IMG/VR virus record: IMGVR_UViG_2724679236_000008
Reading direction: 5' to 3' (one strand)
DNA from: a virus
Taxonomy: Duplodnaviria; Heunggongvirae; Uroviricota; Caudoviricetes
DNA: 64,000 nucleotides
The stretch's first letter is position 1. Every line of letters starts with the position of its first letter. Both the position numbers and the translations under genes were made by a program. The notes below the pieces were generated by a model. That model ran no database searches and was not told the DNA's origin. It saw nothing but the letters and a program-made list of their open reading frames with translations. Positions 10,259 to 12,530 of the stretch are shown here, piece by piece.

Positions 10259-10275
10259 AAATTTATTAGAGCAAT
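10259..10275. promoter_or_regulatory. C1-type operator AAATTTATTAGAGCAAT heading the minus-strand tRNA/tci/ban operon
   Basis: Exact reverse complement of the P1 C1 operator consensus ATTGCTCTAATAAATTT as recalled from memory; overlaps dmt stop codon. Confidence 0.55.
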
Positions 10276-12530
10276 ACAGCTATAACGTCATGAGCAACAC
10301 CACGAGTGTCCCCCTTACAAGACACAGAACGTCTGGCAAAAAGAGGTTCCACTCTGAAGCCACTGTCCTGATAAAGCTCTCTGATGTTTGGCGCGCCACT
10401 GTTAGTAATGAGAACCTTTGCACCTCGGCGATGGGCATCCGTCAACAGAGACACCAGGCGTTTTTGCTCTTCAAACTTAAAGTCATGACCGGAATAGTTC
10501 GTGAACCCCTCTGTATTGGGGAGCGGTTCATACGGCGGATCGCAAAAGATGACATCTCCTTCTCCGGCACCTTCAATCACCGCTGCAAAATCACCGCATA
10601 CAAACTCAGACCGCCCTTCCGCACCGATGAAGGCTTCCATCTCCTGTAATGGGAAATACGGAGTTTTATACTTCCCATAACCAACATTAAACTCACCGGC
10701 CTGGTTGTAACGCGTCAATCCGTTAAAACAATGTCGGTTCAGGAACAAAAACGCTGCTGCACGATGTAAATCATCATAGGCTTGTTTGTTAAACGCATTC
10801 CGTACTGCCAGGTATCCATCCTGTGTGTTGTAGTCCTGGAAAAACCGATGCGCCAGAGTGATAAGTGAATGTCCCTCACGTTGCAGAGTCCTGTAAAAGT
10901 TAATCAGGTCGGCATTCACATCATTTAGCAGATTTTCTTGATATCCGGCATTTATGAAGACAGCTCCGCCACCAACGAAAGGTTCAATCAGGCGCTTTCC
11001 GTCAGGTAAATGCCTAAAGATTTGTTCCAGAACACCAAATTTTCCACCGACCCATTTAAATATGGGACGGTCAAATTCTGCCGTTAGCTTAACTTTCCGT
11101 TCTGTTGCTTCATGATTTTCTGCCTGCTGATATGCAGCCTTAATAATCCGCTCACCAATCCATCGCATTACTGGTATCGCCATACTATTGCCGATCGCTT
11201 TGTAACGCGGTCCGTCAGCTGAAAGCATCGCGGCCTCTTCTTCGCTTAAATCTGGATAGTGATTGCGCAGATATGCCAGTTCATCTGAATTAACTTTTTT
11301 ACGCTTTTCCGTAGGGATCAACGTATACCCATCAGGAAAACCTTGGAGTCTTTCGCATTCGACAGGGGTAAGGCGGCGGACAGCTACTTCTGCGTTTCTT
11401 ACTTCATAGCAAACGGCTGTTGGATTTTGAGCCATTAGAGATGGTGAAGTATTCTTAGTTGCCGCATGTTGTGTACCACTCATACGCTCAGGAAAAGCCA
11501 ATGCAACAAGATGCTCATGGCTTTCTTGCTCACGCGCCCGCAATGTACCATGTCCTTCTGACCAAAAACCTGCTCCTGTGCTGCTAAAAACGGCAAGATC
11601 AGTAGCATCTTTAAAGTCTCTTGCCTTTACTGTCGATGCAGTTTCATCGTCAATATATTCCCCAAAAGCAGCCATCCTGAAAGCGTTTACGGCTTTCGTT
11701 GATTTCATTCTGGGGTTCCCATCAGCGTGTAGGCATGGATTTATATTTTCACCACTGATTGCAGCGCCATTTGCAATAATGGCGGAAGCGATTTCCTTCT
11801 TTTTTCGGCTCGGCGCAATATTCCGGCGCACGCCTTCGAACTCAAAAAGTACCGTTGCGGGATCGAGGTCTGTTCGAGCACTTGCGACAACAAACACGCG
11901 TCGGCGTCGTTGTGCCACTCCGAAGTATTGGGCATCAAGGATTCTCCAGGCCACCTTTCGCTGCGGTCCATAAATACAACCACACTGCGGCCACTTTGGA
12001 GCATGGCAACCGGTTTTGACATCCCACCGCCAGAACGCGTTACTTTTTCGTGATTCAGGTCGCTCACCTGGTTCGAATGGCGCATCTTCTCCAGCCAATC
12101 CGGCAAGGAAACATCCGAAGGCGTTATCTGCCGATGACAAGACTCCTGGGACATTTTCCCAGACGATAACGGCTGGTTTGAGAAATGACTCAGCCCGTTT
12201 GTCGTCAATTGCATTTGCAAGCTCCACATACTTTAAAGTTAGCGCGCCACGCTCATCATCAAGCCCACCACGTAATCCCGCGATACTGAATGCCTGGCAA
12301 GGTGTTCCCCCGACGAGCACATCGGGGGATTCAATTTCCCCAGCCCGGACTTTTTTGGCAAGTTTTGTCATATCGCCAAGGTTGGCGACATGGGGCCAGC
12401 GGTGCGCAAGAACGGCAGATGGAAAAGGCTCGATTTCAGCAAACCAAGCCGGACGCATACCCAACGGCTCCCAAGCAATGCTCGCGGCTTCAATTCCACT
12501 GCAAACAGATCCATAGCACAGCTCTTTCAC
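10266..12530 (-). CDS. dmt: bifunctional DNA methyltransferase: N-terminal C5-cytosine MTase fused to C-terminal Dam-like N6-adenine MTase (754 aa)
   Basis: N-terminus: [10 protein letters not shown] (motif I), [12 protein letters not shown] (PCQ), ENVPG; C-terminus: [10 protein letters not shown] (FxGxG) and VIFCDPPY (DPPY). Confidence 0.85.

Follow-up and report, generated by a model that had tools for sequence, protein, structure and literature searches.

A C5-cytosine/Dam-family methyltransferase fusion, probably under C1 control, is encoded by dmt of an Escherichia albertii P1-like plasmid-prophage

The closest described counterparts of the gene analysed here are dmt of phage P1, formerly named dam, and the gene for the 672-amino-acid (aa) Dam protein of phage P7 (AAQ07538.1). 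The GenBank record of P1 describes Dmt (AAQ14041.1) as a 'bifunctional DNA methyltransferase; methylates DNA at N6 adenine in GATC sequences and perhaps at C5 cytosine...', and the P7 record carries an identical description for its Dam. According to a 2025 review (PMC12707154, citing Sternberg and Coulby 1990), P1 DNA is properly packaged only when pac carries Dam methylation, and the phage cannot do without dmt in Dam- hosts. Escherichia coli Dam has in common with Dmt the FxGxG and DPPY motifs and most of the GATC-contacting positions, whereas in Dmt the Dam domain forms the C-terminal part of a larger protein. The C5 methyltransferases of the Bacillus phages SPR, phi3T and rho11s are, like Dmt, orphan enzymes of temperate phages that are expressed on induction, but they are not fused to a Dam domain; they have been described as arrays of recognition domains (PMC12707154). 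Here, we analysed a 64,000-nucleotide stretch of a tailed-phage record (IMGVR_UViG_2724679236_000008; hereafter 'the window'), in which a 754-aa open reading frame (ORF) at positions 10266–12530 is assigned by sequence to dmt of an Escherichia albertii plasmid-prophage of the P1 type. The P1 genome annotation and reviews already cover the fusion, the way it is regulated and the packaging role of the Dam part. The discovery value is thus small, and the gain lies in the correct filing of the gene and in correcting which operator controls it. The gene and its parts are as follows.

10266..12530, minus strand: dmt, encoding a 754-aa bifunctional DNA methyltransferase, the orthologue of phage P1 Dmt (ORF list, alignment, Pfam/NCBIfam)
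11091..12530, minus strand: C5-cytosine methyltransferase half, about aa 1–480 (PF00145, TIGR00675, motifs)
Within the C5 half, minus strand: conserved core, aa 1–240 and 385–470 (comparison of alleles)
11379..11810, minus strand: variable target-recognition cassette, aa 241–384 (replaced in other alleles)
10266..11072, minus strand: Dam-family N6-adenine methyltransferase half, about aa 487–754 (PF02086, TIGR00571, alignment to Dam)

The first-pass annotation of this DNA, made from the letters alone, had reported a single 754-aa polypeptide at 10266–12530 that fuses a C5-cytosine and a Dam-like adenine methyltransferase. We recovered the same ORF, an uninterrupted run of 754 codons that starts with GTG and lies on the minus strand (12530 to 10266), a detail absent from that annotation. 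The fusion was borne out by profile searches, in which PF00145 and TIGR00675 matched the N-terminal part and PF02086 and TIGR00571 the C-terminal part, all above their cut-offs. The motifs that it had named (PCQ, ENVPG, FxGxG and DPPY) were all located, together with the remaining canonical sets, and the two-domain make-up of the ORF is far beyond chance.

The protein is identical to P1 Dmt at 709 of 754 positions (94%), with 45 substitutions and no gaps, and the gene shows 94.1% nucleotide identity to P1 dmt over 100% of its length. In a nucleotide search, 17 other P1-type phage records also matched. P1 Dmt has the same length, cassette and operon and the same C1 operator Odmt, and in P1 the Oban operator likewise overlaps the dmt stop codon; it differs in reading VWGTPCQ where the window allele reads GGTPCQ, and the window replicon is an E. 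albertii plasmid. In a plasmid collection, the gene was 100% identical to that of plasmid pEA4_97 of E. albertii BIA_4 (RefSeq WP_273780415.1), an IncY replicon of 97,069 bp. Over the whole window the identity to pEA4_97 is 99.97%, in three BLAST blocks of 99.96–99.98% with a small indel near 46.64 kb. This plasmid carries the P1 gene set, including repA, parA/parB, c1, phd/doc, lpa, pacA/pacB, darA and the tail-fibre genes; repA, parA and parB fall within the window, while c1, phd/doc, lpa and pacAB lie outside it. Collinearity, synteny and operator all place the gene among the orthologues of P1 Dmt (Punavirus dmt). At least eight clusters formed at 50% identity keep the C5–Dam fusion, with identities as low as 53%.

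The Dam-family half is defined by a match of residues 493–726 to PF02086, the D12 class of N6-adenine methylases (E = 1.1e-56; 192.8 bits, cut-off 22), and by a score of 250 bits against TIGR00571 (dam; cut-off 114.85). The FxGxG motif for AdoMet binding is present as FVGGG at aa 518–522, and the catalytic DPPY motif lies at aa 664–667. This half aligns to residues 4–266 of E. coli Dam (PDB 2g1p; E = 2.1e-57). The equivalog model for E. coli Dam, NF008152, was not reached by Dmt (241.3 bits against a cut-off of 441), and the C-terminal half is accordingly classed, by profile score, as a Dam-family member and not as a host-type Dam. We take residues K9, Y119, N120, L122, R124, N126, N132, P134 and R137 of E. 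coli Dam to be its DNA contacts, as in the Dam–DNA structure. K9, N120, L122, R124, N126 and N132 are retained in Dmt, and Y119 is replaced by F.

The C5 half matched PF00145 (C-5 cytosine DNA methylase; E = 5.1e-38, 131.7 bits, cut-off 22) and TIGR00675 (dcm; 122.7 bits against a cut-off of 100.65). Motifs I, IV (PCQ), VI (ENV), VIII (QRRRR) and X (GNS) are present, with GSVCSGIE at aa 7–14, GTPCQAFS at 75–82, ENVPG at 125–129, QRRRRVF at 207–213 and AIGNSM at 445–450; the variant form of motif I, GSVCSGIE, is common to all alleles compared. Among nine alleles the catalytic core (aa 25–240 and 385–462) is almost invariant. The ratio of non-synonymous to synonymous substitution rates (dN/dS) against P1 is 0.10 for the N-terminal part of the core, 0.24 for its C-terminal part and 0.18 for the cassette. 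These values are similar to that of the Dam half (0.16), which indicates that the C5 half is under purifying selection. The canonical motifs, the invariant core, the low dN/dS and the retention of the fusion across clusters together argue that the N-terminal domain is intact and that the C5 half is functional in the window allele. We infer its activity, target and role from the sequence: most probably, it would add 5-methylcytosine at a short sequence set by the variable cassette.

The cassette lies between motifs VIII and IX of the C5 half. Unrelated or differently sized inserts occupy the same core in other alleles (the P7 type of 672 aa, a 710/718-aa type and an 822-aa type), so that allele lengths among P1-like plasmids are 672, 710/718, 754/762 and 822 aa and the cassette is mosaic. 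In P7 Dam, the fusion, operon and operators are the same and the C5 core and Dam half are near identical, but an unrelated cassette of about 60 residues stands in place of residues 241–384 and presumably confers a different cytosine target. Replacement of this kind usually marks a difference in sequence specificity, and we would read it in this way here. The window cassette contains four short tandem modules of the T-L/V-x-A type (aa 262–380), and the other alleles contain one to five. As a separate observation, two Dam-half alleles of lower mutual similarity occur recombined with different cassettes (P0016 and P0100 versus the P1 type).

A further difference among alleles lies at the active site. 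In phage RCS47, as in most of the other E. albertii P1-like plasmids, dmt encodes 1095 aa, including a 341-aa intein with a Hint domain, two LAGLIDADG motifs and a TTNDHPF block. The intein starts with Cys, ends with HN and sits between GGTP and CQAFS, so that the catalytic cysteine in the PCQ motif of the methylase serves as its +1 residue; the exteins of these proteins are 94–97% identical to the window Dmt. It was located at positions 1732–2754 of the RCS47 locus (L006) and in pEA36_1 of E. albertii (L007). The window allele is intein-free, and the homologous empty site lies at about 12297–12302 (codons P77–C78). Intein DNA was found in 133 plasmid records, compared with 498 that match dmt, and lies inside dmt in the full-coverage matches shown. 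Inteins also occupy the same site in divergent relatives, both fused and stand-alone C5 methylases. Literature searches returned no paper describing an intein in a P1-type dmt.

The operon that contains dmt, and the operators around it, are as follows.

10248..10275, both strands: Oban a/b, divalent C1 operator, overlapping the last codons and stop of dmt
12527..13432, minus strand: hrdC, RdgC family, 301 aa, with its real start at 13432 (PF04381 RdgC, E = 2.8e-98; annotation of pEA4_97 and P1)
13425..13709, minus strand: uhr, 94 aa, first gene of the operon (position and length as in P1 uhr; phrog_2213 over its full length)
13752..13781, minus strand: putative sigma-70 promoter Pdmt, abutting Odmt (-35 TTGTTT at 13776–13781, -10 TACCAT at 13752–13757)
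13781..13797, minus strand: C1 operator Odmt (formerly Op68), ATTGCTCTAATAAATAT, with one mismatch to the consensus

The gene order uhr–hrdC–dmt, followed by Oban and the ban operon, is the same in the window, P1 and P7. The start of dmt overlaps the stop of hrdC by 4 nucleotides (GTGA) and has a Shine–Dalgarno-like GGAGAGG a few bases upstream, which suggests that dmt is translationally coupled to hrdC. A search of the whole window with the 17-bp consensus for C1 operators gave eight matches, against 0.34 expected. One of these, Odmt, is identical in sequence to the annotated Odmt of P1 and Op(dam) of P7. The adjacent Pdmt differs from that of P1 at just two spacer positions, with both hexamers identical. 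A generic sigma-70 scan missed Pdmt, which is assigned by alignment to the P1 annotation alone. The earlier suggestion that the ORF is operator-controlled is therefore upheld through Odmt, beside Pdmt and upstream of uhr; the operators that touch the ORF itself are those of Oban (10259–10275 on the minus strand with no mismatches and 10248–10264 on the plus strand with two; Obanab/Op72 in the P1 annotation). In P1, Oban controls the ban operon that lies downstream, and here too it is predicted to act on that operon and not on dmt.

Being under C1 control, dmt is governed by a repressor and is turned on when repression is lifted, which sets it apart from a late gene. For the late gene control proposed in the first-pass annotation we found nothing in support. 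A late component could still arise if the two halves were also made separately, with a Dam-only product from an internal late promoter that raises adenine methylation late and independently of C1. Such a promoter, LPdam2, is predicted in the P7 record at about codon 330 of P7, equivalent to window positions 11278–11296, and Met codons follow downstream at aa 435, 450 and 455. None is annotated in the P1 record, however, the predicted -22 element differs from that of P7 at 2 of 19 positions in both the window and P1, and the fusion is a single reading frame in every allele seen. No experimental support for LPdam2 was found, and we consider separate synthesis of a Dam-only product improbable. 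The C1-controlled fusion remains the preferred description of the gene.

The two known clusters of GATC targets, oriR and pac, are conserved on the replicon, and oriR forms the densest GATC cluster of the window.

16056..16110, no strand assigned: five clustered GATC sites of oriR, upstream of repA

The sites, at 16056, 16079, 16090, 16100 and 16107, fall within 55 bp, with five RepA iterons beside them; in the P1 record, five sites of Dam methylation are annotated at this place in oriR. Outside the window, pac in the pacA gene of pEA4_97 holds GATC hexamers in groups of three and four that are separated by about 90 bp; six of the hexamers read TGATCA and one reads CGATCA. Packaging control, also raised in the first reading of this DNA, agrees with the documented role of the P1 Dam activity (PMC12707154) and with the retention of all seven pac hexamers.

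These observations can be combined into one account. In the lysogen, C1 bound at Odmt would keep uhr–hrdC–dmt, transcribed from Pdmt, switched off. Loss of C1, on induction or infection, would derepress Pdmt and allow Dmt to be made. Its C-terminal Dam-type domain would then methylate adenine in GATC on the replicating phage DNA, supplying or boosting methylation at the seven pac hexamers so that the pacase could cut and headful packaging could start. The five GATC sites of oriR would also be methylated, which would make the phage independent of the host Dam level. For the C5 domain, the likeliest benefit of 5-methylcytosine would be that progeny DNA is shielded against type II restriction on entering the next host. 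Within this account, the activity on GATC and the need for methylation at pac are taken from the P1 literature, and the identity, domains, motifs, synteny, operator, target conservation and purifying selection come from the present analysis. Taken as a whole, a C1-repressed dmt with a Dam half that methylates GATC for pac and oriR and with an intact C5 half is very probably correct.

Several points weigh against this account. In the Dam half, two of the E. coli Dam positions are changed (P134 to G and R137 to K). The host Dam also supplies GATC methylation, so that the Dam half would be redundant in a dam+ host, in line with a CRISPR interference screen in which P1 dmt was non-essential (PMC10695390). 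For the C5 half, the P1 annotation hedges cytosine methylation with 'perhaps', and literature searches gave no paper stating a target sequence. Furthermore, position 74, which adjoins the catalytic cysteine, is W in P1 (VWGTPCQ; codon at 4220–4222 of the P1 locus, L001), whereas it is G in the window allele (GGTPCQ; codon at 12309–12311) and in seven others; the sequenced laboratory P1 is mod749::IS5 c1.100. C5 methylation by laboratory P1 may thus be impaired by W74, which could explain the absence of a recorded 5-methylcytosine target, and results from laboratory P1 may not transfer to the window allele. With a canonical active site and no intein, the window allele would be a cleaner subject for a methylome than laboratory P1.

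The hedge in the P1 record and the G74W change in the reference P1 would also be expected if the Dam half alone works and the C5 half, a remnant without catalytic activity, serves as a DNA-binding or structural appendage. Truncated and split forms point the same way, namely AF234173 ('dmt, incomplete'), a 473-aa C5-only protein (P0001) and the division into dmt-A and dmt-B (PMC10695390). In the window allele, however, the motifs GGTPCQ, ENV, QRRRR and GNS are all canonical, and the core is invariant over nine alleles with a dN/dS as low as that of the Dam half. The intein, a homing-endonuclease element inserted exactly at the catalytic cysteine, occupies a type of site that is occupied in functional proteins, and the exchange of cassettes on a fixed core is a pattern that is sensible only if specificity matters. 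On balance we regard a dead C5 half as unlikely and favour a functional one.

A stronger form of the functional reading is that the C5 half is an active and exchangeable antirestriction module, perhaps a multispecific one, that follows the range of restriction systems in its hosts, given at least four cassette alleles with one to five TL-type modules. We offer this tentatively, as a rather unlikely possibility, and the multispecificity of Dmt, for which the Bacillus phage enzymes would provide the parallel, is a conjecture. If it held, the intein at the catalytic cysteine, which the window allele lacks, would add a further layer of polymorphism.

The first-pass annotation had also stated that the window holds no cognate restriction gene. 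This agrees with the annotation of the corresponding part of pEA4_97, where none is present, and with our Pfam searches. A Pfam scan of ten large window ORFs that are unannotated or hypothetical on pEA4_97 revealed no nuclease; these ORFs had tail-fibre, DarA, baseplate, Tad2-like or glycosyltransferase domains, or no match. The gene is flanked by hrdC upstream and by the Oban/tRNA/tciA/ban leader region downstream. Elsewhere on the replicon, type I restriction genes hsdS and hsdR occur (record positions 70974–75405), which would be the starting point for viewing dmt as the modification half of a restriction–modification system with a nearby nuclease. Type I restriction systems work with their own HsdM subunit. 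The hsdS and hsdR genes belong to such a system and lie about 16 kb away, outside the window, and neither the neighbours of dmt nor the rest of the window include an annotated or Pfam-detectable restriction nuclease. P1 and P7 show the same orphan arrangement, and a role of dmt within such a pair is extremely unlikely. By its genomic context, dmt is instead best described as an orphan methyltransferase as in P1, and not as half of a type II restriction–modification pair. An antirestriction role of Dmt is plausible; in P1, the system documented for antirestriction is Dar (PMC12707154), a gene of which lies in the window.

49446-51047, no strand assigned: darA

Some other features of the window and replicon were noted. 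The interval between tciA and dmt (8972–10265) differs from that of P1, with no plp or upl annotated. ARAGORN predicted a tRNA-Ser(tga) at 9233–9319 on the minus strand, which was unconfirmed by Rfam at the gathering score, and did not find the tRNA-Asn and tRNA-Thr of P1 in this interval. A terminator-like hairpin lies at 10066–10085 on the minus strand, where P1 has a dicF-like region; an Rfam scan of 7800–14200 gave one tRNA only and no DicF-family match at the gathering score. In the region downstream of darA, gldA (51564–52667, minus strand), encoding a glycerol/1,2-propanediol dehydrogenase of 367 aa, is a metabolic cargo gene that, to our knowledge, is not a P1 gene. Further along, a 289-aa ORF (56501–57370, minus strand) ends in a domain resembling Tad2 (Thoeris anti-defence 2; E = 4e-21), and a shorter form of it is listed in RefSeq as a DUF2829 protein. 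A fimbrial operon begins at 62700–64000, where the G+C content falls to 0.385 at the window end, and continues on to positions 46413–51094 of pEA4_97; it encodes a PapB/FocB-type regulator, a fimbrial subunit, a PefC-type usher and a chaperone. Finally, three icd/antirepressor (KilAC) gene pairs are present, one in the window (29031–30290) and two outside it on pEA4_97 (56320–57629 and 61300–62618). They are mutually 82–86% identical at the DNA level, which suggests that immunity (immI-like) modules were duplicated or acquired.

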